Origin: Candidatus Binatia bacterium
Lineage (GTDB): Bacteria; Desulfobacterota; Binatia; Bin18
NCBI GenBank assembly: GCA_963664395.2
Contig: OY761159.2
Coordinates: 4,544,001 to 4,608,000, forward strand
DNA: 64,000 bases
Direction: 5' to 3'
Position 1 is the stretch's first letter; every line of letters begins with the position of its first letter. A program made the position numbers and the translations under genes. The notes under the pieces are model-generated. The model was not told the origin of the DNA and made no database searches. It saw only the letters and a list, made by a program, of their open reading frames with translations. Of this stretch, positions 9,767 through 64,000 are shown piece by piece.

Positions 9767-10018
9767 ATGTCTTTTCTTGTGGATTGTCCCAACTGCGGCG
9801 AGCGGAGCGTGTATGAGTTTCGTTCAGGCGGGGAGTTTCGGCAACGCCCGCCTACGTCGGTTTCATCCCACGAGTGGGCGCGTTACCTGTATATCCGAAA
9901 AAATGAGGCCGGCGAGCACACCGAGTGGTGGTATCACCAGATGGGTTGTCGGCGCTGGTTTTTAGCCGTTCGTGACACACGCACGAATATTGTCAAAGAA
10001 ACGTATGAGTACGACTAG
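9767..10018 (+). CDS. soxD: Sarcosine oxidase-like / N-methylglutamate dehydrogenase delta subunit
   Basis: CPNCGER...EF, EWWYHQMGCRRWF, RDTRTN zinc-binding pattern. Confidence 0.9.
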   Translation: MSFLVDCPNCGERSVYEFRSGGEFRQRPPTSVSSHEWARYLYIRKNEAGEHTEWWYHQMGCRRWFLAVRDTRTNIVKETYEYD

Positions 10019-12950
10019 ACTCCCGCCCCACCCGGCCCACGTCATCGATCACGAGAAAACAATTACGTTCACCTTTGCTGGGGAAAGAATCCAGGCACGG
10101 GCGGGCGACACCATCGCCTCTGCTCTCTACGCCGCGGGCCAGCGTATCTTCAGTCGGAGTTTCAAATACCACCGACCGCGCGGACTGTTATGTAGCGCCG
10201 GGCAGTGTCCCAACTGTCTGATGAATGTGGATGGCACACCGAGTGTCCGCACCTGCACCGCACCCGTTCGGCAAGGCATGCGCGTCCAGCCACAAAATGT
10301 GTGGCCCTCGCTCCGGCACGACCTCCTGTCCATTATTGGCAGCTTCGATTGGCTGCTGCCGATTGGCTTCTATTATAAGACCTTTATTCGTCCACGCTTT
10401 CTCTGGCCGTTGGCAGAGAAGTTTCTCCGGCGTGTGGCCGGCCTGGGAGAAATCGATACACAGGCAAAACCAAAAGGCGGCTATGACCACCAGTATCGTC
10501 ACACGGATATTGCGGTTGTCGGCGCTGGGCCGGCCGGTTTAACCGCGGCGTATGAAGCCGCCCGCCTCGGCAGTCAGGTGACGCTGATTGACGACCAGCC
10601 GAAACTCGGGGGTCATTTGCGGTTTCAGACCAGAACCTACGACAACATAGGCGAAGATGGCGGCGAAGATAGCGGATTAACGGGATTCGAGCTGGCCCGG
10701 TCATTACGAGAGAAAGTCACGTCACAGCCGAACCTTGATATTCTTTCATCCGCCACCGTCTTTGGTGGCTATGAAGGCGGGCTGCTGGGAGTGATGCAGG
10801 CCAAGCGACTGATCCATCTGCGCACGAAACGTGTGATTATTGCAACCGGGAGTCACGAGTATCCAGCCGTTTTTCGGAACAATGATTTACCCGGCGTCAT
10901 GCTTGGCAGCGGAGTGCGGCGACTGCTGCACCTGTATGGAGTGAAGCCCGGTACACGCGCAGTTGTTGTCTGCCATGATGAGACAGGTCTGACTCTTGCC
11001 GCTGAGTTGCTCAATGCCGGCATCCGGGTTGCCGCGGTTGTTGACTCTCGCTACAGGCTGCCGGAAGCCCAGGATTCGGTGAAACAGCTCCACCGTAGCG
11101 GCGTCGAGTTGCTCACCTCCTACGCTATTCAAGAAGCCCACGGTAAGGATCACGTTGATGGAGCCCTGGTTGTTCCGCTTGATGCTCGGCAACACCCTTT
11201 TCCGCACGCGAGCCGTTTTATCCCGTGTGATTTGATTTGTCTTTCGACCGACCGGGCTCCGGCGGCGGCCCTGGTGGCGCAGAGTGGGGGCGAACTCCAC
11301 TACGATGAAGCGCTGGGGAAAATGATTCCGCAGCAGCTGCCGCCCCAGGTGTTCTGTGCCGGTGACGTGACCGGCATCAATCATTTGCCCGCTATTCTCG
11401 CCCAAGGACGCCTGGCCGGATTACAGGCCGCTCACAGTCTTCACCTGTCTGACTCACCCGCCCTCCCTGCTCAAACCCAGACTCTCCAACGGGAGCTGAG
11501 TAGGCTTGAGGAAGAGTATCGACACCACTATGAGCCTTATCCTCAACTCAGTCATGTCTGGGAAAAGAAAAAGCAGTTTGTGTGTGTCTGCGAAGACATT
11601 ACCCACACGGACCTTGCTCAGGGCGTGGCCGAGGGCTTTGATGAAGTCGAAACTCTCAAACGCTACAGCACCTTTTCAATGGGGCCGTGTCAGGGCCGCA
11701 TGTGCGCGACTGCGGCCCTGCGTATTTGTGCAAAACAGGCCGGTCGTGCGCTGGCCGCGGCGCGTACTACTACGGCCCGGCCGCCCATTATGCCGGTACC
11801 GCTCGGCGTTCTGGCCGGACGCAACCATCAGCCGGAAAAACACACGCCCCTGCATCATCGCCACATTGCCCTGGGCGCAGAGATGATGCTGTTAGGCAGT
11901 TGGAAACGGCCGTATGCGTATACCGCGCCAAACGAAGAACATCGGGCTGTCCGCGAACGGGTCGGGATCATAGACGTCAGCACCTTGGGAAAACTGGAGG
12001 TCAAGGGCAAGGATGCCGCGCAATTGCTCGATCGCGTCTACACGCATACCTTTTCGACTCTCCGAACCGGACGCATCCGCTACGGTGTGATGTGTGACGA
12101 CAGTGGGATCATTATTGATGATGGCACAGTTTCGCGCCTGGCTGACGACCATTTCTTTTTGACGACCACCACGGGTAATGTCGAATTCGTCGAACAATGG
12201 CTCAAATGGTGGACAGCCGGCACGGACCTGTGCGCGCAGGTGACCAATGTGACCGGTGGGCTGGCGGCCATGAACATCGCCGGCCCGTACGCCAGGCAGG
12301 TGTTCAGTCGGATCACGGATAGTGACCTGTCTTCGGAAGCCTTTCCCTATATGGCCTGCCGGCAGGCCGAAGTGGCGGGGGTGCCGGCGCTGTTGCTGCG
12401 CATCGGCTTTGTCGGAGAGACCGGCTGGGAAATTCATATTCCGGCTGAATGCGGGGAGCAGGTGTGGGACGCGGTCATGGCGGCGGGAGCAGAGTTTCAG
12501 ATTATCCCGTTTGGCGTTGGGGCACAGCGTATTTTACGTTTGGAGAAAAAACATGTCATCGTCGGCCAGGATACCGACGCGCTGTCCAACCCCTTGGAAG
12601 CCGATATGGAATGGGTGGTCAAGTTCAATAAGGACGACTTTATTGGCAAGCGCGGCCTCCAGGCCGTACAGGAACGCGGCCTACGTCAAAAACTGGTGGG
12701 CTTTGCGCTGCGCGACTCGGGTATGGCGGAAGGCGGCCAGGCGGTCGTGCTGAACGGTCAACCGGCCGGCAGGGTCGCCAGCGCGGCATTCAGTCCGGTT
12801 GCCGGGAAATGCGTCGGTCTGGCTTGGGTGCCGATTGAGGTGGCGAGCGGCGATAGTCCGCTTCAGATTCGCATAAACGGAACGCTCGTACAGGCAGATA
12901 TTGTTGACGAAGCCTTCTACGACCCGCAAGGAGAGCGCCTCAGGGGCTAG
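10005..12950 (+). CDS. soxA: Sarcosine oxidase-like / N-methylglutamate dehydrogenase alpha subunit
   Basis: GDTIASAL, SRSFKYHRPRG, VGAGPAGL, LKRYSTFSMGPCQG, and a C-terminal GcvT domain (DVSTLGK, GETGWEI, FYDPQGER). ATG at 10005. Confidence 0.92.
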   Translation: MSTTRLPPHPAHVIDHEKTITFTFAGERIQARAGDTIASALYAAGQRIFSRSFKYHRPRGLLCSAGQCPNCLMNVDGTPSVRTCTAPVRQGMRVQPQNVWPSLRHDLLSIIGSFDWLLPIGFYYKTFIRPRFLWPLAEKFLRRVAGLGEIDTQAKPKGGYDHQYRHTDIAVVGAGPAGLTAAYEAARLGSQVTLIDDQPKLGGHLRFQTRTYDNIGEDGGEDSGLTGFELARSLREKVTSQPNLDILSSATVFGGYEGGLLGVMQAKRLIHLRTKRVIIATGSHEYPAVFRNNDLPGVMLGSGVRRLLHLYGVKPGTRAVVVCHDETGLTLAAELLNAGIRVAAVVDSRYRLPEAQDSVKQLHRSGVELLTSYAIQEAHGKDHVDGALVVPLDARQHPFPHASRFIPCDLICLSTDRAPAAALVAQSGGELHYDEALGKMIPQQLPPQVFCAGDVTGINHLPAILAQGRLAGLQAAHSLHLSDSPALPAQTQTLQRELSRLEEEYRHHYEPYPQLSHVWEKKKQFVCVCEDITHTDLAQGVAEGFDEVETLKRYSTFSMGPCQGRMCATAALRICAKQAGRALAAARTTTARPPIMPVPLGVLAGRNHQPEKHTPLHHRHIALGAEMMLLGSWKRPYAYTAPNEEHRAVRERVGIIDVSTLGKLEVKGKDAAQLLDRVYTHTFSTLRTGRIRYGVMCDDSGIIIDDGTVSRLADDHFFLTTTTGNVEFVEQWLKWWTAGTDLCAQVTNVTGGLAAMNIAGPYARQVFSRITDSDLSSEAFPYMACRQAEVAGVPALLLRIGFVGETGWEIHIPAECGEQVWDAVMAAGAEFQIIPFGVGAQRILRLEKKHVIVGQDTDALSNPLEADMEWVVKFNKDDFIGKRGLQAVQERGLRQKLVGFALRDSGMAEGGQAVVLNGQPAGRVASAAFSPVAGKCVGLAWVPIEVASGDSPLQIRINGTLVQADIVDEAFYDPQGERLRG

Positions 12951-12955
12951 GACAT

Positions 12956-13741
12956 ATGGCAGGTTCATTAGGTCTCCCGCTCATCCGGCGCTCGGCGCTG
13001 CACGCTTTCCATCTCTCGGCCGGTGCCGGTATGGCTGAGAACAATGGCTGGCACTGTCCCGACTCCTACGGTTCGGTTGACGCTGAAGTGCAGGCAGTCT
13101 TTGAACAGGTGGGGCTCAGCGATATCAGTCCCCTGGCCAAGCTCGATATGCAAGGCAATAATGCGTTCGCCGCGCTCGTGCAGTGGCTCTCACCCGATCT
13201 CTCACCTGATCTCTCACTGGGCCTCTCACCTGAGACACTCCCTGGCCGGACTGTCGTTCGAGTCACTCCCCAAGCCCTGCACATTGGCCCGGATACGAGT
13301 GGTCTGCCGGGTGGGCTGGTGTGTTCCCTTGCCAGGAATCACGCGCGGCTCATCTCCTCACCCGGAACCGCCGCTGCAGTCCAATCCCACCTTGAGGCAG
13401 TGACGCAGCCGGCAGCCGCTTCAGCCTGCGTCCACCTGACCGATGTCACCTCGAGTTTTACTGCTGTGCAGATAACTGGCCCGCGCAGCCGAGACTTGTT
13501 GAGGAAGCTCACCGCCTTGGACCTCAGACCAGCCCAATTCCCGGATTTGTCCTGCGCGCAAGGCAGCCTGGCAAACGTCCATGCCCTTGTCATTCGTGCA
13601 GATATACAGACTCATCTTTCCTACCAGGTCTACTATGGACGGGAGTTTGGTGAGTACGTATGGGAAGCCCTGCTGGACGCCGGCCAGGAGTTCGGAGCGC
13701 TCCCGTTCGGCATGGCGGCCCAACGCCAATTACAAGGATAA
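12956..13741 (+). CDS. soxG: Sarcosine oxidase gamma-like / aminomethyltransferase-family subunit
   Basis: RRSALH, LSDISPLAK, LTDVTS, GPRSRDLLRKL, YVWEALLDAG; lies between the alpha and beta genes. Confidence 0.75.
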   Translation: MAGSLGLPLIRRSALHAFHLSAGAGMAENNGWHCPDSYGSVDAEVQAVFEQVGLSDISPLAKLDMQGNNAFAALVQWLSPDLSPDLSLGLSPETLPGRTVVRVTPQALHIGPDTSGLPGGLVCSLARNHARLISSPGTAAAVQSHLEAVTQPAAASACVHLTDVTSSFTAVQITGPRSRDLLRKLTALDLRPAQFPDLSCAQGSLANVHALVIRADIQTHLSYQVYYGREFGEYVWEALLDAGQEFGALPFGMAAQRQLQG

Positions 13742-13744
13742 GCC

Positions 13745-14956
13745 ATGCTACAGCTCTTTCGTACGCAACAGATGTGGCGCCGGCATGACCTGAAAGAGCA
13801 CTATGATGTGGTTATTATCGGGGCCGGCGTGCATGGCCTGGCAACCGCTTATTATCTCGGCAAACAGGGTGTGACGAATGTGGCGGTGGTAGACCGCAGC
13901 TACCTCGGCGGGGGTAACAGTGGCCGCAATACGGCTATCCTCCGCGCGAATTATCGCACGCCTGAAGCGATTCCTTTTTACGATGAGAGCCTGCGCCTGT
14001 ATCAGGAGTTGTCTCAAGAAGTTGACTTTAATGTGCTTTTTTCTCAGGTTGGTCATTTGACTCTGGCCCATACGGACACCGGCGTTGATGGCTTGCGCGT
14101 CCGGGCCGAGGCCAACGCCCTGCTGGACGTGGACAGCCGGCTGATCTTTCCGGACGAGATTCAGCGCCTGGTGCCCGCACTGGATGTCAGCAAAAAGGCC
14201 CATGCCCCCATCCAAGCGGCGCTGTATCATCCTCCGGGCGGTATCATCCGTCATGACGCGGTGGTCTGGGGCTATGCGCGCGGTGCGGACCGGATGGGCA
14301 TAGAAATCCACCCGCATACGGAAGTCCACGCCATTGAAACGGACAACCATCAGATTACCGCCGTCCAAACCAGTCGGGGTCGCATTGCGACCAACACCGT
14401 TGTCAATGCGACCTCGGGCTGGTGTTCAACCGTTGCACGTATGGTGGACGTTGATTTACCCATTGTCTCCCATCCGCTCCAGGCCTGTGTCACCGAGCCG
14501 TTAAAGCCCTTTCTGGACAAGGTCATCGTGTCCGCCACGCTGCACGTGTATGTCAACCAGACCGACCGGGGAGAAGTGGTCATCGGCGCGGAAATCGACC
14601 CCTACCCTTCGTATAATGCGGCCTCGACATTGCCCACTTTGGAGATGATGGCGGCGCATGCCCTGGAGCTGTTCCCGATATTGGAAGAAGCCCGGGTTTT
14701 ACGTCAATGGACCGGCGTCTGCGATATGACACCCGATTTCAGCCCCATTATGGGCAGCGTACCGGAAGTCAAGGGGTTTATTCTGAACGTCGGCTGGGGG
14801 ACGTATGGTTTCAAGGCCGGGCCGGCCGGAGGAAAAACCATAGCCGAACTCATTGTCACCAAGACAACGCCCAAATTGATCGAACCGTTTTCCCCGGCCC
14901 GTTTTTATGCAGATCGTTTAGTCGGAGAGAAAGCCGCGGCCGCAGTGTCGCATTAA
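13745..14956 (+). CDS. soxB: Sarcosine oxidase-like / N-methylglutamate dehydrogenase beta subunit (FAD)
   Basis: YDVVIIGAGVHGLATAYYL, GGGNSGRNT, RHDAVVWGYA, DMTPDFSPI, GWGTYGFKA. Confidence 0.93.
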   Translation: MLQLFRTQQMWRRHDLKEHYDVVIIGAGVHGLATAYYLGKQGVTNVAVVDRSYLGGGNSGRNTAILRANYRTPEAIPFYDESLRLYQELSQEVDFNVLFSQVGHLTLAHTDTGVDGLRVRAEANALLDVDSRLIFPDEIQRLVPALDVSKKAHAPIQAALYHPPGGIIRHDAVVWGYARGADRMGIEIHPHTEVHAIETDNHQITAVQTSRGRIATNTVVNATSGWCSTVARMVDVDLPIVSHPLQACVTEPLKPFLDKVIVSATLHVYVNQTDRGEVVIGAEIDPYPSYNAASTLPTLEMMAAHALELFPILEEARVLRQWTGVCDMTPDFSPIMGSVPEVKGFILNVGWGTYGFKAGPAGGKTIAELIVTKTTPKLIEPFSPARFYADRLVGEKAAAAVSH

Positions 14957-14967
14957 AGGAGGGACTC

Positions 14968-16305
14968 ATGACAACAGTGCAAGACGTGGCAACAATTGTC
15001 CAGGACAACGGCATCGAGTTCTTTCTGTGCTCCTTTGTGGAGATGAGCGGAGCGCCCAAGGCCAAGGTCGTGCCGGCCGTCCATCTCCGGGACATGGCCG
15101 CAGGCAGCGCTGGCTTTGCCGGGTTTGCCGCCGGCAATATGGGCCAGGGCCCGCACGACACCGACATGCTGGCCATGCCGGATTTCAGTAGCCTGGCCAT
15201 CCTCCCCTGGCGTCCCAACGTGGCCTGGGTCGCCAGTGACATCACCGTCGATGACCAGCCCTGGCCCTACTGTCCGCGTACGATTTTACAGCGTCAATTG
15301 GCCACGGCACGAGAGAAAGGCTATGCCCTCAGAACCGGGGTCGAGCCGGAGTTCATTCTGACCCGGCAAAATGAGACTGGCGGTTTTGAACCGCTTGATC
15401 CGCTGGATACGCTCAGCAAACCCTGTTACGACCTGCGCGCCCTGAACCGCAATCTGGATTTCACCACCACGCTGCTGAGCTATATGCAGGGGCTGGGCTG
15501 GGACCCGTACGCCAACGATCACGAGGACGCCAACTGTCAGTTTGAGATCAACTGGACCTTTTCCGACTGCCTGACCACCGCGGACCGGCACACCTTCTTT
15601 CGCTGGATGGTGCGCACAGTGGCCGAGGAACGGGGCAGCATCGCCACCTTCATGCCCAAGCCCTTTTCGCACCTGACCGGCAACGGCTGCCATTTTCACA
15701 CCAGCCTGTGGGACGCGGAGAGCGACGTCAACCTGTTTCTCGACGAGTCGGACGAAAACGGTCTATCCGAGTTGGCCTATCACTTCATCGGCGGCCTCAA
15801 GCACCACGCTCGGGCGATCGCCGCGGTGACGGCACCGATCGTGAATTCCTATAAACGCCTGATTCGCGGCGCTCCTCTCTCCGGGGCAACCTGGGCCCCG
15901 GTCTACGTGACCTATGGGGCTTCAAACCGCACCCAGATGATTCGGATTCCCGGTCCGGGCCGGATAGAAAATCGGACGGTGGACGGCGCGGCCAACCCCT
16001 ATTTAGCCCCGACCGTCATGCTGGCCGCCGGGCTCGACGGCATTGAGCACAAGATGGCAGCCGGGAGTCGCAACGACCGCAATTTGTACGAGGTCCCGGA
16101 AGTAGAGTTGAAAGCCGCAGGCATAGGCTTTCTGCCAACCACCTTAAGCGAAGCGCTTGATGAGCTTGAGCAGGACGAGGTCATCAAAGCGGCTCTCGGA
16201 CGCGAGTATGCCGAGTATTATATCCAGGTGAAGCGCGACGAGTGGAAGAGTTATCACGATTCCGTCTCGCAGTGGGAAGTGGAGAATTATCTGGGGTTGT
16301 ACTGA
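14968..16305 (+). CDS. glnT: Type III glutamate-ammonia ligase / gamma-glutamylmethylamide synthetase (GmaS)
   Basis: PKAKVVP, GAGFAGFA-like motif, DHEDANCQFEIN, FMPKPF, NSYKRL, SGATWAP, NRTQMIR; RBS AAGGAGGG before ATG 14968. Confidence 0.92.
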   Translation: MTTVQDVATIVQDNGIEFFLCSFVEMSGAPKAKVVPAVHLRDMAAGSAGFAGFAAGNMGQGPHDTDMLAMPDFSSLAILPWRPNVAWVASDITVDDQPWPYCPRTILQRQLATAREKGYALRTGVEPEFILTRQNETGGFEPLDPLDTLSKPCYDLRALNRNLDFTTTLLSYMQGLGWDPYANDHEDANCQFEINWTFSDCLTTADRHTFFRWMVRTVAEERGSIATFMPKPFSHLTGNGCHFHTSLWDAESDVNLFLDESDENGLSELAYHFIGGLKHHARAIAAVTAPIVNSYKRLIRGAPLSGATWAPVYVTYGASNRTQMIRIPGPGRIENRTVDGAANPYLAPTVMLAAGLDGIEHKMAAGSRNDRNLYEVPEVELKAAGIGFLPTTLSEALDELEQDEVIKAALGREYAEYYIQVKRDEWKSYHDSVSQWEVENYLGLY

Positions 16306-16498
16306 GTCTACGCCGAGGACAGCCGCCGAGAGACCGGGGAATGGCCTCCCTGGTTACGGTGAATAGGCAAGACTGCACTTCTACTTGCAGTGACGTAGCA
16401 GATGCCCGGCACTCTGGACCAGCGAGCATCTGCTACGTCACCTGTTCTTCATCTTCGTTGTGAATAGTTCTCCAGCATATGACCACAGGAAGGAAGTC

Positions 16499-17479
16499 AT
16501 GCCATCGACTGTCATGTTCATTGGGGTTCTGTTGTTGCTTACAACCCAGGGCTGGGCTACCACATTAGAAAATCCTGCTTCAGGAGCCATCAAGAGTGGA
16601 GTTGGCCTCTTGTCCGGTTGGGTCTGTGAGGCTGATGAGTTGGCAGTGAGTTTTGATGGGGGCGCTCGTCAATTTGTGCCCTACGGATCAGAGCGAGCCG
16701 ACACCCGTTCTGTCTGTGGCGATACGAATAACGGCTTTGGTCTTCTCATTAACTACAATAATCTAGGTGATGGTCCCCATACCGCTACCCTCTATGCTGA
16801 TGGGATAGTTGCTACGCAGGTCCGTTTCACAGTCAAGACGCTCGGCACCGATTTTCTGCGGGGCGCATCGGGTCGGTTTCGTCTCACGGATTTTCCTGAC
16901 GCTGGCAGTTCCGTGGTGATTCTATGGGAAGAAGCTACACAAGGATTTGCGATTATAGACTATACGGAAGGGAGCGAACCACCGGAACCGCCAGCAACCA
17001 GTGGTGTTAGGCAATTCCTTGGGACGTGGCGCTTCACCAATAGTCGCACGACACAGACCTATCGGTTCGGAGAGTGTCCGGCAAATACCGTGGCAAAACC
17101 ATGCGTTGCAGATGTGACACAAAGAACATATTTATGGCCGACATACCTTTTTGAGGGGTTAGATTCTCTTGGGCATAGCTATTATCTCGCTGATGTCGAA
17201 CGCAGTGTGTGCCGGGTATGGCTCTTCTATGAACCAAACGGCAACCGTGTGAACGGTCATTACGGGGATGCGTCTGGGGATTGTCTTTCCCGCTCAACGA
17301 TTGTCTCAATAGTCGAAGATTTAGCGGATAGGCGATATCCCACCACCGGCACCCGTGTCAGTCAATCTGCTGCGAGCCCGACGACCGCAAAAGAAGCGCT
17401 GGAACCCCCTATTCCACCAGAAGCGCAAGAAGCTCTCGAACAGGCCATTGAGGATTCGCTGTTCTTACTAATGGAATAG
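16499..17479 (+). CDS. Secreted protein with a single N-terminal copy of the window's recurrent Cys-containing domain
   Basis: Signal peptide (VLLLLTTQGWA), then LENPASGAIKSGVGLLSGWVCE...CGDTNNGFGLLINYNNLGDGPH; unique C-terminal half. Confidence 0.75.
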   Translation: MPSTVMFIGVLLLLTTQGWATTLENPASGAIKSGVGLLSGWVCEADELAVSFDGGARQFVPYGSERADTRSVCGDTNNGFGLLINYNNLGDGPHTATLYADGIVATQVRFTVKTLGTDFLRGASGRFRLTDFPDAGSSVVILWEEATQGFAIIDYTEGSEPPEPPATSGVRQFLGTWRFTNSRTTQTYRFGECPANTVAKPCVADVTQRTYLWPTYLFEGLDSLGHSYYLADVERSVCRVWLFYEPNGNRVNGHYGDASGDCLSRSTIVSIVEDLADRRYPTTGTRVSQSAASPTTAKEALEPPIPPEAQEALEQAIEDSLFLLME

Positions 17480-29115: not shown

Positions 29116-32100
29116 TTACTCGATATCAGTGATGACAAAGTTCTGCTGGTTCTGCTGCCATTCCAGGGTCACCGTCTCGCCTGTCGTGGGGAAGTTCTCA
29201 ACGACACATTCCCCCGCAACGCCGCGCAGAAACTCCGCCCCCAGGGTCGTCACCCGCACCGTTGCTCGGCCCAACTCCACGCCATCCACGTAGGCCACGA
29301 CCGTATGTTCCCCATCCCCCAGCAAGTTCCAGTTGAACAACAACCCAAAGCCGTTGTCCGTGTCCCCACAGGCATCTTGGGTATCCAGTCGCTCCGTCCC
29401 ATACGCCGCCACCTGCCGCCCGGCGGTCCCAATCGCAAGCTCGACCGTCTCGGCCGCACACACCCAGCCCGACAGCACCCCAATCCCACTCTGGAACGAG
29501 TTCGGCCCCGGGTTCTCCAGATGCTCCACGCCCGCTGTCCCGGAACGATTCTCCCCGCTCGGACGGCTCCCCTCCGCAAGCACAAAGTTCTGGTTGTTTT
29601 GCTGCCATACGAGGGGCACCGTCTCCCCGACCAGGGGAAAGTCCTCGACGGGACAGCTTCCTGCCACATCTCGGAGAAACTCCGCGCCCAGCGTCGTCAC
29701 CGTCACCGTGGCCCGGTCCAGTTCGATGCCATCGACGAACGCCACGACTTCATGCTCCCCGTCGCCCAGCAGGTTCCAGTTGAACAGCAACCCAAAGCCG
29801 TTGTCACTGTCGCCGCACACCGGCTCGGTGTCCAGCCGCTCGGTCCCGTACGCCGCCTCGTGCACCACCCCGTTGAGCTCGAGCTCCACTGTGTCGGCGT
29901 CACACACCCAGCCCGAGAGGACACCGATGCCACTCTGAAACGAGTTGGAGCCTGGGTTCTCCAGAATGCCCGTGGGTTCCTCCAGAATGCCTGTGGGCTC
30001 CTCCGACGGCCCGCCACCGCCGCCCCGGCCGCCAGTCGTGACGGGCGCCCGCGGCACCACCTCAATCTGCGCCGGCACGCCGTTGCGCCCTTGGCCCTTC
30101 CTGCTGCCCTCCGTATCCAGGAAGTGGGCCACCGCCCGCACAAAGAAGGTGTAGGTCACCCCGTTTGTTACCCCCGGCACTGTCGTCCGGCACGGGTTAC
30201 AGTCGGGGGCAACCATCGCCGGATTCCAGTCTCCCTCCGTGTCCCCATAGTGGACCTTCCAGTAGTACGTGACGAGGGTGGCCTGTGGGTCGAGTTCAGC
30301 AGGAGGTTCCCAGATCAACGTCACCTGCCGGTCGCCCGGTATGGCGCGCAGGTTCTCCGGCACGTCCGGGGCGTCAAGGGGAAAAGTCATGGCGTTGACA
30401 TGGTCGCCGGCGGGCTCAGGGTTATCGACGCTGGAGTTGATCGCGAACACGCGGTAGGCGTAGGTCGTGCCGGGATTGAGGCCCGTGTGTTCGTAAGTGG
30501 TCGCCGTGTTGCCGGTATTGGCCTCAAGGTCGGTCCAGGTCGTGCCCCCGCCCTCGGACACCTGGATATTGTAGCCCGTGACGGGGCTATTACCTTCGTC
30601 GCCGGGGGGGTCCCAGGACAGATCGATTTGCGTTTTCCCGATTGCCGTGGGCTTCAGGTTCCTGGGCGCACTCGGGGTACCGTCTCCCGTCGGTAAGGTG
30701 GTGGTGGCGACTCCGGGGGCGGCGTTATCGACGCCCTCCGAGTTGATCGCGAACACGCGGTAGGCATAGGTCGTCCCGGGAGTGAGGCCGGTGTGTTCGT
30801 AGGTGGTGTCCGCGCTTCTCGTGTCCAAGACGAGGTCGGTCCAGGTCGTGCCCTCGTCGGTGGACACCTCGATCCTGTAGCCGGTGATGACGCGCCCGCC
30901 ATTGTCGGCCGGGGTGGTCCAGGTGAGGTCGATCCGGGTTGAGCCGTCGGCGGTCGCGATGAGGTTGGTCGGTGTGTCGGGGGACCTCGGCTGCACGGTG
31001 GAATTGTTGGTGACCGGTTGGTCGGTGAACGAGGCGGCGTCATTGCCCGCTTTGTCCTGAATGGCCATGGGGTCGTTGTTTGCGGTGGGATCTTCATAGC
31101 TGACCGTGACGGTCTGGCCCTCACGGATAAGGTTGACCAGAGCGATCTGAATCCTCTTGTCGTCGCCCGAGCCCAATGAGATGGGACAGAAAGGCTTGCA
31201 GGTAGATTCGTCGCGGAACTCGGCCTCCGCGTCGTCGACGGTGACGGTGATCGCAGAGGGCTCAGGGAGCGTGGTGGAGAGCGTCTCCAGGAATTCGAGT
31301 ATGACGTGGGTACCCGCCGTCGTCACAAGGGCGGAAACGAACTCGGTTACGTTGGCGACGTTGAGGGTCACTTCAGTGGTATCCGTGGTATCCGTGCCGC
31401 CCTTGCGGTCATCGGTCTTGACCGTCACCGCATAGCTCGTCGTCGCCTCGTGGTTGTAGGCCTCGCCGCCCTTGGTCTGAATCTGCCCGGTCTCCTCGAC
31501 GATGGTGAACTTGTCCGCGTCTACGCCTTCCAGGCTGTAGGTCAGCGTGTCGTTGTCCGGATCCGTGGCGGTGACCGGCTCGCCGATATCGGCTTCCGCT
31601 TGCACGGCCGCCTCGCTCACGGTCTCGGGGAAGCTCCGCCTCGTGGCGGCAGTCGCAAACACCGGTGGGGTATTGACCGTATCCCCGCTCCCGGGGGAGG
31701 ACCAGGCGCCGTCGCCATCGGTGTTGCTCGCCCGTACCTGCACCTGGTACGTCGCATTCCCATCGAGCCCCGTGATGCTCGTGCTCGTGCCGGTCACTTT
31801 CTGCGGACCGTCAGTGAAGTTCCCGCTGTTGCCCTTGCGGTATTGCAGGTCGTAGCTCGTAATCGCCGGGCGACCGGTGTTCGACGGCTCCGTCCACATC
31901 ACCTCCAGGGTCATCCTGACCCCCGGAGTCGCCGACACCGCTGGCGCCGCCGGCGCCAGCGGTTTCTCGGTCTCGACGTTGGTAACGGTGATGGTCACCG
32001 CGATCACGCCGGAGCCGCCAGTGGTGTCGGTGGCCTTGACCGTCACCGCATAGCTCTTATTCATCTCCGGCAGGGCCTCGTAGTCGTAGGACTGGCCCGC

Positions 32101-34464
32101 CTTGGTCGTGAGCTGCCCCCCGGAGGCCCCCGACACAATGCTGAACCTGTCCGCGTCCACGCCCTCCAGGGTGTAGGTGATCGTGTCGTTGTCCGGATCC
32201 GTGGCCATGAACGGCTCGCCGATATTGGCGTCGGACGTCTGGGTCGCCTCGCCCACCGTCTCGGGGATGCTGCGCGTCGCGGTGCTGTTCGTAAACACCG
32301 GCTGATTGTTGGCCGTCGACCCGCTCCCCGGCTCTGACCAGGCGCTGTCCCCGTCGGCGTTGGTCGCTCGCATCTGCACCTGATACTCCGAGTTCCCGTC
32401 GAGACTCGAGATGCTCGCGCGCGTGCCGGTCTGGTTCTGCGGCCCGTCGGTCCAGTCGGTTTCGGTGCTCTTCTTGTACTGCAGGTCGTAGCTCGTAATC
32501 GACGGCCGGCCGGTGTTGTTCGGCGCCGTCCAGGTCACGTCGAGGCTCGTCGTACTCCCCGGAGTCGTCGTGACCGTCGGCGCCACCGGCGTCAGCGGTA
32601 TCTCGGTCGCGTTCATGACGGTGATGGTCACCGCAATCGTGTCGCTCCCCGTGCCGTCACTCGCCCTGACCGTCACCGCATAGCTCGCCTTCGCCTCGCG
32701 GTCGTAGGCCTCACCGCGCTTGGTCCGGAGCTGCCCTGTCCCCGGGACGATGGTGAACTTGCCCGCGTCCGTGCCTTCGAGGCTGTACTCCAGCGTTTCC
32801 ATGTCGGCATCCATCGCAGTGACCGGCGCGCCCACGTCGCCCGCCGTCTGCACGGTTGTATCGCCCACCGTCTCGGCGATACTGCGCGTCGCGGTGCTGT
32901 TCGTAAACACCGGCGCATTGTTGGCCGTCCGGCCACTCCCCGGGGGGGATGACCAGTCGCTGTCCCCGGCGGCGTTGGTGGCTCGCACCTGGACCTGATA
33001 CGCCGAATTCGCATCGAGGCTCGCGATGCTCGCGCGCGGGCCGGGCACGTTCTGCGGCCCGTTGGTCCAGGTGCCGCTGGTGCCCTTGCGGTACTGCAGG
33101 TCGTACCCCGTGATCGCCGGGCGGCCCGTGTTCGACGGCGCTGTCCAGGTCACGTCGAGGCTCCTCGGGCTCCCCGCAGTCGCCGACACCATCGGCGCCA
33201 CCGGCGTCAGCGGTCTCTCGGTCTCGTTCGTGACGGTGATGGTCACCGCAATGGTATCCGTGCCGCCCTCGCCGTCATCGGCCTTGAGCGTCACCGTATA
33301 GCTCGTCCTCGTCTCGTAGTCGTAGGACTGGCCCGCCTTGGTCGTGAGCTGCCCCCCGGAGGGCCCCGACATAATTCTGAACTTGCCCGCGTCCGTCCCT
33401 TCCAGGGTATAGGTCAGCGTATCGGTGGTGTCGGCATCCATCGCGGTGACCGGCGCGCCGATAGTGGCGGCCGTCTGCACCGTCCTCGCGGCGAACGTCT
33501 CGGGGATACTGCGCGTCGCGGTGCTGCTCGCAAACACCGGCGGGGCGTTGGTGTTGTTGGTCACACTCTCGTTCATCAGCGCCGCCGCGTCGTTGCCGAC
33601 AGTGTCCTGCACCGGGTTGCTTCCCGGCACGGTGTAGGTCACCGTCACGGTTTGCTCGGCGGTCACCGCCGTCCCCAGCGTCAGGGTGACCGTCATGCCG
33701 CTCACGTCCACGCTCGACGGCGCCACGCCGGTCCCCCCGGCCACGGACACCGAGTAGTCGCTCGTCGCCGGCTCCGAGCTCGTGTCCAGCGCTTCGTCGT
33801 AGGTCAGCACCAGGGACGTCCCGTCCACCGTCGCCGTGCTCAGCGTCGGTACGGTGGTGTCGGTGCCGACGGTGCCGTTGATCTGTATACGCAACGGGCG
33901 TATAAAGGTCGGGTCATCCGGCTTCCAGCTTGCGTTGCTATGCTTCCTCTTGTGTTTCAGGTCAGCGAGGCTCCATCCGCTGGCTCCGCCGTCCTCCTCG
34001 GCGCCGTTTAACACCCACGCAATGCCATAATAACTGAAGTCAAAGTCTGACGGCGCCGGCTCGCCGACGCCGACGTTCTCAAACACGACGAAATAATCCG
34101 TGTCCGCATCAAGGGTCGCATTGGCGGCGGCGGTGAAGGTATTCTTCCCCTCTTCGCAAGACGTAAATTCAGGACCCCAGCCGGCGTGGACAAGCGGCGA
34201 CGGGTTGGGCAGCATGTGCAGGCTCGTCCCGAGATTGCCGTCCGGGCCGACCGTGGGATTGCCGTCCGGGCCGACCGTGTGGATGCTTACCTGCGGCGTG
34301 GCGTATTCGCCTATGAAAATGAGACAGGTGTCAACCGACGTAATCGTGTACCCGCCTGCGGCGGAGCCTGTCGTGAATTTCTGCGCAGCCGCGACCCCGC
34401 CCTCATTGAATTCATCCTCGGGGAAGTCTACGCCGAAATATTCAAGCGGGTACTGGTGCGTCAA
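29116..34464 (-). CDS. Giant modular surface protein (SwmB-like, cadherin-like and FN3 repeats, two C-terminal Cys-domain copies); main ORF separated from its signal peptide by a frameshift
   Basis: PTLSTATVDGTSLVLTYDEALD (SwmB-like), repeated APVF...IGAPVTA.D.D...Y.LEG.DA..F (cadherin-like) and W.AP.NTGRP.IT.YDLQY (FN3) units, then ENPG.NSFQSGIG twice. Confidence 0.88.
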   Translation of the reverse strand: MTHQYPLEYFGVDFPEDEFNEGGVAAAQKFTTGSAAGGYTITSVDTCLIFIGEYATPQVSIHTVGPDGNPTVGPDGNLGTSLHMLPNPSPLVHAGWGPEFTSCEEGKNTFTAAANATLDADTDYFVVFENVGVGEPAPSDFDFSYYGIAWVLNGAEEDGGASGWSLADLKHKRKHSNASWKPDDPTFIRPLRIQINGTVGTDTTVPTLSTATVDGTSLVLTYDEALDTSSEPATSDYSVSVAGGTGVAPSSVDVSGMTVTLTLGTAVTAEQTVTVTYTVPGSNPVQDTVGNDAAALMNESVTNNTNAPPVFASSTATRSIPETFAARTVQTAATIGAPVTAMDADTTDTLTYTLEGTDAGKFRIMSGPSGGQLTTKAGQSYDYETRTSYTVTLKADDGEGGTDTIAVTITVTNETERPLTPVAPMVSATAGSPRSLDVTWTAPSNTGRPAITGYDLQYRKGTSGTWTNGPQNVPGPRASIASLDANSAYQVQVRATNAAGDSDWSSPPGSGRTANNAPVFTNSTATRSIAETVGDTTVQTAGDVGAPVTAMDADMETLEYSLEGTDAGKFTIVPGTGQLRTKRGEAYDREAKASYAVTVRASDGTGSDTIAVTITVMNATEIPLTPVAPTVTTTPGSTTSLDVTWTAPNNTGRPSITSYDLQYKKSTETDWTDGPQNQTGTRASISSLDGNSEYQVQMRATNADGDSAWSEPGSGSTANNQPVFTNSTATRSIPETVGEATQTSDANIGEPFMATDPDNDTITYTLEGVDADRFSIVSGASGGQLTTKAGQSYDYEALPEMNKSYAVTVKATDTTGGSGVIAVTITVTNVETEKPLAPAAPAVSATPGVRMTLEVMWTEPSNTGRPAITSYDLQYRKGNSGNFTDGPQKVTGTSTSITGLDGNATYQVQVRASNTDGDGAWSSPGSGDTVNTPPVFATAATRRSFPETVSEAAVQAEADIGEPVTATDPDNDTLTYSLEGVDADKFTIVEETGQIQTKGGEAYNHEATTSYAVTVKTDDRKGGTDTTDTTEVTLNVANVTEFVSALVTTAGTHVILEFLETLSTTLPEPSAITVTVDDAEAEFRDESTCKPFCPISLGSGDDKRIQIALVNLIREGQTVTVSYEDPTANNDPMAIQDKAGNDAASFTDQPVTNNSTVQPRSPDTPTNLIATADGSTRIDLTWTTPADNGGRVITGYRIEVSTDEGTTWTDLVLDTRSADTTYEHTGLTPGTTYAYRVFAINSEGVDNAAPGVATTTLPTGDGTPSAPRNLKPTAIGKTQIDLSWDPPGDEGNSPVTGYNIQVSEGGGTTWTDLEANTGNTATTYEHTGLNPGTTYAYRVFAINSSVDNPEPAGDHVNAMTFPLDAPDVPENLRAIPGDRQVTLIWEPPAELDPQATLVTYYWKVHYGDTEGDWNPAMVAPDCNPCRTTVPGVTNGVTYTFFVRAVAHFLDTEGSRKGQGRNGVPAQIEVVPRAPVTTGGRGGGGGPSEEPTGILEEPTGILENPGSNSFQSGIGVLSGWVCDADTVELELNGVVHEAAYGTERLDTEPVCGDSDNGFGLLFNWNLLGDGEHEVVAFVDGIELDRATVTVTTLGAEFLRDVAGSCPVEDFPLVGETVPLVWQQNNQNFVLAEGSRPSGENRSGTAGVEHLENPGPNSFQSGIGVLSGWVCAAETVELAIGTAGRQVAAYGTERLDTQDACGDTDNGFGLLFNWNLLGDGEHTVVAYVDGVELGRATVRVTTLGAEFLRGVAGECVVENFPTTGETVTLEWQQNQQNFVITDIE

Positions 34465-34717
34465 GGAGTGTGGTCAGATTGCTGACAAGCTTGTCGGCAC
34501 GCGCCTCTCCGGCGCCGCCCGCCAGGACGGTGACAAGCAGCAGCAGCCCGGCCAGGGCGCGGCGCATCAGGCGCACTCTGGGGGGGAGTTGGGGAACGTA
34601 TCGCACTATGCGTTGTTGGGAATCCTGGCCTTGCATCGCTCTCCTCCATCTGTACCGCTCATCCGCCCGCCCCCCGACGCCGCGCCGGAGCGAAAAATAG
34701 TGTGGGGGGAAGTCCAT
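34442..34717 (-). pseudogene. Out-of-frame 5' segment (signal peptide) of the giant surface protein
   Basis: MRRALAGLLLLVTVLAGGAGEARA|DKLVSNL is a Sec signal plus mature start, one frame off the 1782-aa ORF at ctgACCACACtcc (~34467-34477). Confidence 0.7.
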
Positions 34718-61842: not shown

Positions 61843-64000
61843 ATGCAAGAGGAGAGAATAAGAATGCAGAATGAGCCCAGAATCCCCCGGAGGTGTTCGA
61901 TTTTTCCAGGCCGTGCTCCCCAACCACCCCGCCCGTCCCGGCGATGGGGCGCGGGGGCGGCACTCGTCGTGCTGGCCGCCGTGCTGGGGATTGCCACGCC
62001 GGAAGACGCGCAGGCGCAGACGCCCCCGTCGTCCGATATCGAGCGCGATGCGCTGGCAGCACTCTATACTGCGACCGGCGGGGCGAACTGGACGAGCAAT
62101 GATAACTGGCTGGACGACGACACGGAGCTACGTTACTGGCACGGGGTCACAACGAATGATGACGGCGAGGTCACTCAATTGACCCTCAGGGGTAACGAGC
62201 TGAGCGGTTCCCTCCCAGCCAAGTTGGGGAACCTGGTGAACCTCACGCATCTGTATCTCCACCAAAATGCGCTGAGCGGCGCGATTCCGCCGGAGTTGGG
62301 GAACCTGGTGAACCTCACGCATCTGTATCTCTACCAAAATGCGCTGAGCGGCGCGATTCCGCCGGAGTTGGGGAAGCTGGTGAACCTCACGCATCTGCTG
62401 CTCCACCAAAATACCCTGAGCGGCGCGATTCCGCCGGATTTGGGGCTATTGGAGAACCTCACGCATCTGCTGCTCCACCAAAATGCGCTGAGCGGCGCGA
62501 TTCCGCCGGATTTGGGGAAGCTGGTGAACCTCACGTATCTGCTGCTCCGCCAAAATACCCTGAGCGGCGCGATTCCGACGGAGTTGGGAAGCTGGTGAAG
62601 CTCACGCAGCTACACCTTCAGGGCAACAAACTGAGCGGCGCGATTCCGACGGAGTTGGGGCTGAGCAGCCTGCTTGACCTGAAGCTCCACAGCAATGCGG
62701 CCTTGAGCGGGCCGCTCCCCGCCAGCTTTCCGACCGCCATGCCGGACCTCAAGGTACTGAGTGTGCAGAACACCGGAGTGACCATACCGCAGACCACGGC
62801 ATTTACGGATTGGAGCGCCCGCATCACGTCCGGCACCCAAACGAGCGACGGGGTCATCACGCTGGACGCGGCCAACACTCGTCCGAGTGGGCTGTGGGCG
62901 GACAGCACCACGCTGTATGTGGTGGGCGAAGACGGGGGGAAGGTGTACGCCTACACACTGGCCAGCGGCGTGCGAGCTTCCGCCAAGGACATTCCCTTGG
63001 CCGCGGCCAACGCTCGTCCGACTGGGCTGTGGTCGGACGGGACGACGCTCTGGGTGTTGGACTACGATGACAGCAAAATATACGCCTACACGCTGGCCGG
63101 CGGTATGCGGGACACGGCCAAGGATATTGGTCCCGTTCCCGCCGGGTACGGGCTGTGGGGGAGGAAGGACGCGCCCTGCGAGGGCTCCGACGCGACCTGC
63201 TTGCTCTGGCTGGTAAAATATATCTCAGGCCCCATCGACCTCAATGCCTACCGGATATATGAGGATACGAGTGCATCGGTGACATACGGGTCGGCGAATG
63301 CCAGCTTTGACAAGAATTTGCCAACGGGTGACCTGACTGGCATCCAAACCTATGAGCGCGGGCTCTGGTGGAAGGTCCCGGAGCCGGACGATGACCCGTC
63401 CGATGACGTGGCCACCGTATGGATTTCGGACTTCTTTGACGCCGGTCTGTACGCGTACAGCGCGAACCCGAGGGTAGAAAACGAAGCTGACATTGTGTCC
63501 GCAGCCACGCAGGATCGCATCCTGGCGCCCGCCAACCTGAGCCCGACGGCGTTCTGGTCGGACGGGACAACGTGGTGGGTGGCGGACTTCCACGCGGGGA
63601 AGGTCTTTGTCTACGGGTCCAGCGCGTCGACAGGCACCGATACGGGTACGGACACCGATACGGACACCGATACGGACACCGATACGGACACCGATACGGA
63701 CACCGATACGGACACCGATACGGACACCGATACGGCACCGATACGGACACCGATACGGACGGACACCGATACGGACACCGATACGGACACCCGCACCACG
63801 GGCGGCGGTTCAGGCGGCGGCGGTTCCAGCCAGGACGACCACGGCAACACGCCGGCGCAGGCGACCGCCGTTCCCCTGGATGTCGCCCGCACATCGAGCA
63901 CGCCGGGGCAGATCAACCCCGCGGCCGACGTGGATTACTTCAGCGCAGACGTGCCCCACGCCGGGGTGTTGGTCGTCGAGACGAGTGGTTCGACCGCCAC
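61843..64000 (+). CDS. Secreted LRR + beta-propeller-like + PPC-like surface protein; frameshift at 62586-62588; runs off the window end
   Basis: Signal peptide ...AQA|Q, cap ERDALAALY.ATGG.NW, plant-type LRRs. The shifted frame continues open with GLW.DG.TLWV repeats, a (TD)n linker, and DDHGNTPAQA...GQIN...DVDYF as in the 47312 protein. Confidence 0.85.
62200..62660 (+). repeat. 72-bp tandem repeats encoding 24-aa LRRs
   Basis: CTGAGCGG recurs at 62200, 62272, 62344, 62416, 62488, 62560, then 62631 (71-bp step). Confidence 0.95.
63648..63791 (+). repeat. 12-bp minisatellite (ACGGACACCGAT) x ~12 encoding a Thr-Asp linker
   Basis: Seven perfect units at 63648-63731, then units with a -1 and a +4 irregularity (net in frame). 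Confidence 0.95.

Follow-up and report, generated by a model that had tools for sequence, protein, structure and literature searches.

A lineage-restricted twin Ig-like module at the ends of diverse, predicted exported proteins of Binatia

A stretch of 64,000 nucleotides from a Candidatus Binatia bacterium (assembly GCA_963664395.2, contig OY761159.2, positions 4,544,001 to 4,608,000; hereafter the window) was analysed for a recurrent protein module of about 134 amino acids. In the translated frames of the window, five copies and one relic of this module were found. Three genes carry the module, and the 5' start of a fourth gene of the family lies at the window end (Table 1). A sequence-only reading of this DNA had placed the module twice in the 1782-aa protein, twice in the 47312-50349 protein and once at the N-terminus of a small protein, and our translations confirmed this placement. 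The five copies are 46-75% identical to the first copy and share 48 invariant columns in the alignment, which is a similarity far beyond chance. The relic named by the same reading at 50382-50433 is also present. It lies upstream of the second gene in another frame, reads AILTWQQNSRSFVITRVE and continues with codons for WAR and a stop. The same relic stands upstream of the paralogue P0242, and further relics in the genome match positions of about 88-133 of the module profile only.

Table 1. Module-bearing genes, individual modules and the relic in the window
Feature	Position	Strand	Content or evidence
Large exoprotein gene	29116-34636	(-)	choice-of-anchor R, SWM repeat, cadherin and fn3 repeats, Gly-rich linker, twin module
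Large exoprotein open frame, 1782 aa	29116-34464	(-)	modules at residues 1501-1634 and 1649-1782
Module A of large protein, residues 1501-1634	29563-29964	(-)	HMM 236.8 bits
Module B of large protein, residues 1649-1782; ends ...NFVITDIE at stop codon	29119-29520	(-)	HMM 243.1 bits
Second exoprotein gene	47312-50404	(-)	fn3, three PPC-like domains, Calx-beta, Gly-rich linker, PPC-like domain, twin module
Module A of second protein, residues 744-877	47774-48175	(-)	HMM and alignment
Module B of second protein, residues 893-1030; ends ...NFVVTDIE at stop	47315-47728	(-)	HMM and alignment
Module-end relic, last ~17 residues	50382-50433	(-)	upstream of second gene
Small exported protein, 339 aa	16499-17479 (open frame 16460-17479)	(+)	signal peptide, one module, 8-stranded beta-barrel domain, C-terminal helix
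Single module of small protein, frame residues 36-170	16565-16969	(+)	directly after signal-peptide-like stretch
Fourth family gene, 5' part	62595-64000	(+)	runs off window; twin module just past window end

The Pfam models fn3, Cadherin, SWM_repeat, PPC and Calx-beta matched the passenger regions of the window proteins, in line with the domains that had been named from the letters (FN3, cadherin-like, SwmB-like, PPC-like and Calx-beta). The NCBIfam model choice_anch_R matched the N-terminus of the large protein. Gly-rich linkers before the C-terminal part, also part of that description, are visible in both large translations. The fourth family gene corresponds to C1:4606196-4609024, with modules at residues 661-942 of its open frame, and no Pfam match was found in its window part.

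Both large window genes are without a signal peptide in the assembly because of frame shifts near their 5' ends. For the large gene, an ATG at 34636 and a signal peptide (MQGQDSQQ...AGEARA) lie upstream in another frame, with one extra base near 34460. In two public runs (X1, X3), each with a single contig over this site, the base is absent, which makes it either an error of the assembly or a variant between strains. The intact 1832-aa orthologue of the large protein, P0159, starts with a signal peptide. In the second gene two frame shifts at about 50230-50330, which compensate each other, cut off the signal-peptide region; the paralogue P0242 is intact. Signal peptides are present in the intact relatives P0159, P0162 and P0242.

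A hidden Markov model (HMM) was built from the five window copies and run on all six-frame open reading frames of the bacterium's own genome (G000; 5.04 Mb, 14 contigs). The search gave 139 module matches, of which 117 are close to full length; they fall in 84 open frames and 51 loci. The module family is genome-wide and not local. An intact pair of modules ends at most 12 residues from the stop in 35 frames. In a few frames the pair is close to the N-terminus, and several proteins of about 400 aa have a single N-terminal module. The only protein with four modules (C1:3781032-3783038) is without a membrane anchor or signal peptide by a heuristic test. A Sec-type signal starts about 45 of the 69 family frames of at least 250 aa, as judged by a crude hydrophobicity test. 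In seven family genes a module is interrupted, either by a stop codon in frame (TGA in one, TAG in another) or by a frame shift (C1:2800814-2804548, 1285688-1286842, 2747111-2750864, 3356152-3357542, 973159-974590, 4608894-4612542 and 2026519-2027426). These may be recent pseudogenes, assembly errors or recombination scars.

The same module was then sought among 1.84 billion cluster representatives (50% identity), in which 2,937 proteins matched at E<=0.001 and 1,267 at E<=1e-30. The position of the module was analysed in the best 150 of the 2,937 matching representatives. Exactly two modules were present in 147 of them. The pair was terminal in 141, C-terminal (at most 12 residues from the end) in 114 and N-terminal in 27; it was internal in the other 9. 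C-terminal pairs have a Gly/Pro-rich linker or a PPC-like domain in front of them and end in a conserved ...NFV[IVM]TD[VI]E-COOH. N-terminal pairs are without that ending and begin 2-4 residues past the predicted signal-peptide cleavage site (...WAQ before the site and ATLENP... after it). Placement at either the N- or the C-terminus is typical of non-covalent anchoring modules. The C-terminal position of the putative sorting or anchoring tag, which had been described from the window, holds for the majority of the pairs but not for those behind a signal peptide. The latter make a strictly C-terminal export signal unlikely.

Cysteines are a constant feature of the module. Cys21 was kept in 546 of 546 modules and Cys51 in 544 of 546. 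A third cysteine, Cys105, behaves differently: across 241 pairs it was found in both modules of 160 pairs, in neither module of 80 and in only one module of a single pair. The presence of Cys105 is associated with a C-terminal position of the pair, and its absence with an N-terminal one. In 42 of the 80 pairs without Cys105, the two positions hold different residues, which argues against mere copying between the first (A) and second (B) module. We infer that Cys105 forms one predicted inter-module disulfide in the C-terminal subtype. Identity is 72% between the A and B of one protein and 67-72% between modules taken from different proteins, and A can be told from B consistently at a single profile position. 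The idea that A and B are ancient subtypes was rejected; a tree of 216 modules, itself poorly resolved, needs 31 changes of the A/B label.

The pair is also strongly acidic. Its median isoelectric point is 4.1 and its net charge -29.5 (52 pairs, including both window pairs). Lysine makes up 0.3% of the residues in the pair, compared with 1.5% in the passengers and 3.4% in the crude proteome.

The structure of the pair was predicted with AlphaFold2 (AF2) on an alignment of 52 tandem pairs. The mean pLDDT was 92.3 and the pTM 0.84, and the tandem folds as one body in this model. When the model was compared with known structures by VIA-align, residues 1-93 of each module were matched, best by the Ig-like module of the T. 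petrophila mannanase (6tn6_A, Z 11.2, root-mean-square deviation 1.7, 81 residues aligned). It was followed by the dimerisation domains of sulfite oxidase and dehydrogenase (Z 9.3-9.4), the CbhA X1 module (3pe9_A, Z 9.1) and the Ig module of the C. fimi mannanase (2bvt_A, Z 9.0). The model of the small single-module protein gave the same top match (6tn6, Z 11.5). The last ~40 residues of the module form three strands, which are outside the fold matches. Weak matches to type IX secretion system (T9SS) related structures were also seen, namely the C-terminal domain (CTD) of mirolase (Z 7.1) and PorU (Z 8.0). Foldseek of the tandem model against the PDB returned just generic multi-Ig (immunoglobulin-like) matches, with a TM of about 0.2, and the module profile against PDB sequences gave a chance match only (2i5v_O, E 0.41).

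No Pfam or NCBIfam model matched the module in the window copies, and Big_7 (PF17957) gave no match to them at E<=0.01. Weak Big_7 matches were present in 10 of the 52 tandem pairs (best E 0.002). The Big_7 cut-off (24.1 bits) was passed by two divergent paralogues, C1:2797391-2798626 (34.8) and C1:443204-445012 (24.7), and look-alikes in the ESM Atlas carry Big_7. The question raised from the window, whether the module would hit a characterised domain, has a mixed answer: the window copies have no curated match, but two paralogues reach Big_7. On the predicted model, the module is a divergent Big_7-like Ig/E-set domain of about 93 residues with a three-strand tail of about 40 residues. The fold itself is not new; the module belongs to a known class of folds, as a branch that is new and has no curated model.

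The passengers of the module are diverse. Those of the relatives include leucine-rich repeats (LRR), cadherin, Calx-beta, SRCR and fn3 domains, sulfatase, arylsulfotransferase and a reprolysin-like protease. Further passengers are glycoside hydrolase family 97 (GH97), subtilase, matrixin, FGE-sulfatase, a staphylococcal-type nuclease, GDSL lipase, a beta-lactamase-fold enzyme and Cache domains. Among the listed relatives of the module or of the small protein none has a functional name (one is a 'hypothetical protein'). The sequence-only reading had proposed a constant tag on a shuffled library of adhesin passengers. A lineage-specific constant unit with exported, shuffled passengers is indeed what was found, but enzymes are among the passengers, and therefore the tag is not confined to adhesin-like proteins.

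The small single-module protein had been suggested as a possible partner of the tagged proteins. For its C-terminal domain (residues 171-339) 25 relatives were found, all unnamed, and in the alignment the front of these is either one module or two to four unrelated Cys-rich repeats of about 45 residues. The front module is exchangeable on the same beta-barrel domain, and therefore the small protein is another passenger family and not a dedicated partner. Its AF2 model (pLDDT 75.6) contains an 8-stranded beta-barrel that matches designed beta-barrels (Z 8.3-8.8). The module tail of this protein was modelled with low confidence (pLDDT 56-65 over residues 111-170), which fits the pair as the unit. 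The Cys-rich repeat (PDPDYC...CDPGQC...VCVNDVG..YGLP..YDVCE) was seen in P0262, P0264, P0266, P0269, P0270, P0272 and P0278, and it also ends two small frames of the own genome, C1:507014-507841 and C1:4812126-4812860.

The taxonomic range of the module is narrow. In the same genus it was found in 22 of 24 genomes, with 3 to 63 matches each; the two genomes that have none are complete. An even draw of the class gave the module in 40 of 201 Binatia-class genomes and 12 of 88 genera. By family, the module-bearing genomes were 21 of 24 in f1, 16 of 20 in f8, 1 of 1 in f2 and 1 of 19 in f11. An even draw of the phylum gave, besides the own genome, one weak match among the other 400 genomes. The HMM search proposed with the first description thus returned a family that is genome-wide in copy number, mostly terminal in position and almost entirely limited to two Binatia families. 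Related public records are labelled uncultured Binatia or Binatota, with a few under other labels. Part of the stretch is contained in runs labelled sponge metagenome. RNA libraries contain short contigs that differ from passenger-specific parts by 0-1 mismatch; they do not prove transcription. Metagenome-assembled genomes of Binatia have been obtained from Ircinia sponges, with eukaryotic-like proteins enriched there (PMC9531527). The searches for papers on Binatota in sponges and on eukaryotic-like proteins of Binatia gave no description of the module, nor did a term search of PMC9999580 or the passages on Binatia in PMC9531527.

The own genome has a type II secretion system (T2SS) operon with GspF, GspG, GspM and GspD, and GspD scored 494 bits against a cut-off of 351. 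Within the genus, a GspD orthologue (68-85% identity) was present in exactly the 22 module-bearing genomes. In the two module-free genomes of the genus the GspD match was only partial and 35% identical. The PurB proteins of these two genomes are 81% identical to that of the own genome; those of G003 and G010 are 75% identical, yet both genomes keep the module and GspD. In the class draw, with GspD matches counted at E<=1e-60, a match was found in 38 of 40 module-bearing genomes, and the two misses are 84% and 87% complete. A match was also found in 89 of 161 module-free genomes, which argues against the tag as a general requirement of that T2SS. The T2SS looks necessary but not sufficient for the module, and this pattern is compatible with export of the module proteins through the T2SS.

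Other secretion-related genes were also searched. The SprA model PF14349 matched 0 of 5 genomes, and the control genomes likewise gave none. A Tad/Flp-type pilus locus with a secretin, a TadA-like ATPase and CpaB was observed at C1:1525783-1533345 of the own genome, and such a locus is present in three module-bearing genomes. The secretin of the Tad locus was not found in the two module-free genomes of the genus. When alternative tails were sought in these two genomes, the models choice_anch_R, Arylsulfotrans and Cadherin gave no match.

The window neighbours of the module genes are metabolic genes. A sarcosine-oxidase-like set with large alpha-like and FAD-dependent subunits, as read from the translations, lies at window positions 9972-16305 upstream of the small module protein. 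It is followed by a glutamine-synthetase-type gene (Pfam Gln-synt_C); both are ordinary metabolism and unrelated to the module. Genome-wide, the recurrent neighbours of the family are luciferase-like oxidoreductases, short-chain dehydrogenases/reductases and CoA-transferases, which we assume to be abundant genome-wide families. No secretion genes were found in three annotated gene islands around family genes. The sole family-specific neighbour in the genome is a LuxR-type regulator of about 390 aa with a GerE helix-turn-helix at residues 330-383. It occurs in seven full copies and three broken pieces, all beside module genes or module-end relics. The sites on C1, all outside the window, are 106393-107565, 114563-115735, 267616-268782, 1912807-1913695, 2009382-2010518, 2816355-2817527 and 3274778-3275950; further sites outside the window are C3:17527-18663 and C9:147-365. 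This adjacency suggests dedicated regulation, or co-duplication of regulator-plus-exoprotein units.

We considered what the pair may do, given its fold class, pairing, terminal placement, signal peptides, lineage restriction and passenger diversity and the presence of a T2SS. The explanation that we favour, tentatively and at slightly below even confidence, is that an exported, disulfide-stabilised twin-Ig unit addresses or anchors a large and varied set of secreted proteins to one common ligand, once they have been exported by Sec and probably by the T2SS. The module would work as an intramolecular pair. Tagged proteins would be exported by Sec and then folded with their disulfides in the periplasm, and they would most likely leave the cell via the T2SS of the genome. 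The acidic, almost lysine-free twin-Ig unit would be the common address for hydrolases, proteases, sulfatases and LRR, cadherin, fn3 and SRCR binders. The shared ligand would belong to the bacterium itself, on its envelope or in the matrix directly around it. Here both the export route and the anchoring or targeting role of the pair are what we infer.

Several results weigh against this explanation. All fold matches (Z up to 11.2) are to accessory Ig modules of a generic kind, which do not indicate a function. The concordance of Cys105 within pairs was rejected as a set of many independent events, since it needs 2 changes on the tree of pairs. The link of the module to GspD is weak in the class draw because of the module-free genomes that also match GspD. 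Within the genus, the loss of the module together with GspD is probably one event. The Tad-pilus secretin and the cadherin-type passengers were lost with them, so this co-loss may be no more than the mark of a changed lifestyle. The analysis gave no ligand, receptor or dedicated machinery, the gene neighbours being metabolic, with the LuxR-type regulator at some loci. Finally, the count of signal peptides comes from a home-made hydrophobicity heuristic.

Other explanations of the same data were weighed. The pair could be a binder of carbohydrate or matrix that resembles a carbohydrate-binding module (CBM) and targets the passengers to extracellular material of the host, a sponge, and not to the bacterium's own surface. 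Ig-like accessory modules of glycoside hydrolases (6tn6, 2bvt, CbhA X1) gave the best fold matches, many passengers act on glycans or matrix (GH97, sulfatase, arylsulfotransferase, metalloproteases), and sponge metagenome runs contain part of the stretch. We nevertheless consider this role unlikely: most of the matching Ig modules serve as linkers or accessories and are not proven binders, and no CBM family model matched the window proteins or the 52 tandem pairs. Sponge matrix glycans are sulfated and anionic, and an acidic, lysine-free surface is an atypical partner for anionic glycans unless cations bridge the two. A role in export itself is rather doubtful in our view. If the folded pair were the feature by which the T2SS of the lineage recognises its substrates, the independence from position would suit an exporter of folded proteins, the disulfides of the pair would imply periplasmic folding, and the near-complete co-occurrence with GspD and the co-loss inside the genus would be explained. 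The same secretin orthologue in 89 of 161 module-free genomes speaks against it, since the T2SS works there without the tag.

The pair might also have no addressing role at all and be a stabilising, spacing or oligomerising Ig cassette that was spread by recombination. E-set domains often serve as spacers or in dimerisation, as in the sulfite oxidase dimerisation domains matched at Z 9.3-9.4. A and B are homogenised, with 72% identity within and 67-72% between proteins, and relics and frame-shifted copies indicate active recombination. Spacers are usually internal and variable in number, whereas this unit has two modules in 147 of 150 proteins and is terminal in 141 of 150. The ~48 invariant columns among copies down to 46% identity also suggest a specific interaction surface, and a mere cassette therefore seems improbable to us. 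We regard it as very improbable that the module is a sorting signal restricted to the C-terminus and belonging to a new or T9SS-like export pathway. The conserved ...NFV[IVM]TD[VI]E-COOH on C-terminal pairs and the weak resemblance of the Ig-like fold to T9SS CTDs (mirolase Z 7.1, PorU Z 8.0) would fit such a signal, but 27 of 150 pairs are N-terminal behind a signal peptide, the model TIGR04183 has no match on the module, and no dedicated machinery was found near family genes.

A bolder version of the anchoring model can be stated, to which we give little credence. In it, the twin-Ig unit would be a transferable, position-independent folded tag that evolved in sponge-associated Binatia, routes most of the secretome to the T2SS and then retains these proteins on the outer surface. 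If this were true, the tag would be the first modular domain for sorting or retention to be linked to a T2SS, a diderm counterpart of T9SS CTDs or SLH anchors, and it would have evolved to display eukaryote-like binding domains together with matrix-degrading enzymes. Substrate recognition by the T2SS and cell retention in diderms are poorly understood, and a modular tag would make both testable. Should the pair prove to be a surface address, the proteins that carry it would be those displayed by this symbiont lineage towards its host, encoded by roughly 60 genes in the own genome. The module profile is a simple sequence handle to list such proteins in any Binatia genome. The family, which is blank in Pfam and NCBIfam, merits a curated model.

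The module can be compared with several known systems. With Big_7 and the Ig-like/E-set accessory modules (6tn6, 2bvt, 3pe9) it shares the fold over the first ~93 residues. Different from Big_7, it adds the three-strand tail of ~40 residues and two to three conserved cysteines, stands in an obligatory terminal pair and is used across the secretome of one lineage; the window copies are below any Pfam cut-off. The T9SS CTD (TIGR04183) of Bacteroidota is an Ig-like tag common to many secreted enzymes and adhesins of one lineage. Like the module, it is an Ig-like beta-sandwich on dozens of unrelated secreted proteins with a conserved extreme C-terminus, a trait that in the module belongs to the C-terminal type. 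The module differs in being paired and also N-terminal, and its genome has a T2SS instead. The sole TIGR04183 match (16.2 bits, cut-off 23) covers residues 302-353 of the second protein, which is a PPC-like region and not the module. PEP-CTERM, LPXTG, SLH and autotransporter models from Pfam and NCBIfam gave no match on the three window proteins, and the view that the module is none of these, nor a T9SS CTD, stands as far as curated models go. The large window proteins end in ...TDIE, without a hydrophobic segment.

SLH domains and the CWB2 repeats of Clostridioides difficile Cwp proteins occur in a fixed small number at either terminus of many unrelated surface proteins. The module resembles them in this logic, with few repeats that are N- or C-terminal and common to unrelated proteins. 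It differs from them in its fold, in having two repeats and not three, and in its diderm host. The dockerin of the cellulosome is likewise a small acidic module that is joined by flexible linkers to many enzymes. A loop of our module, CGDTDNGFG, is DxDxNG-like and might bind calcium. In contrast to dockerin, the module is all-beta and not helical in the manner of EF-hands, and no cohesin-like scaffold was found.

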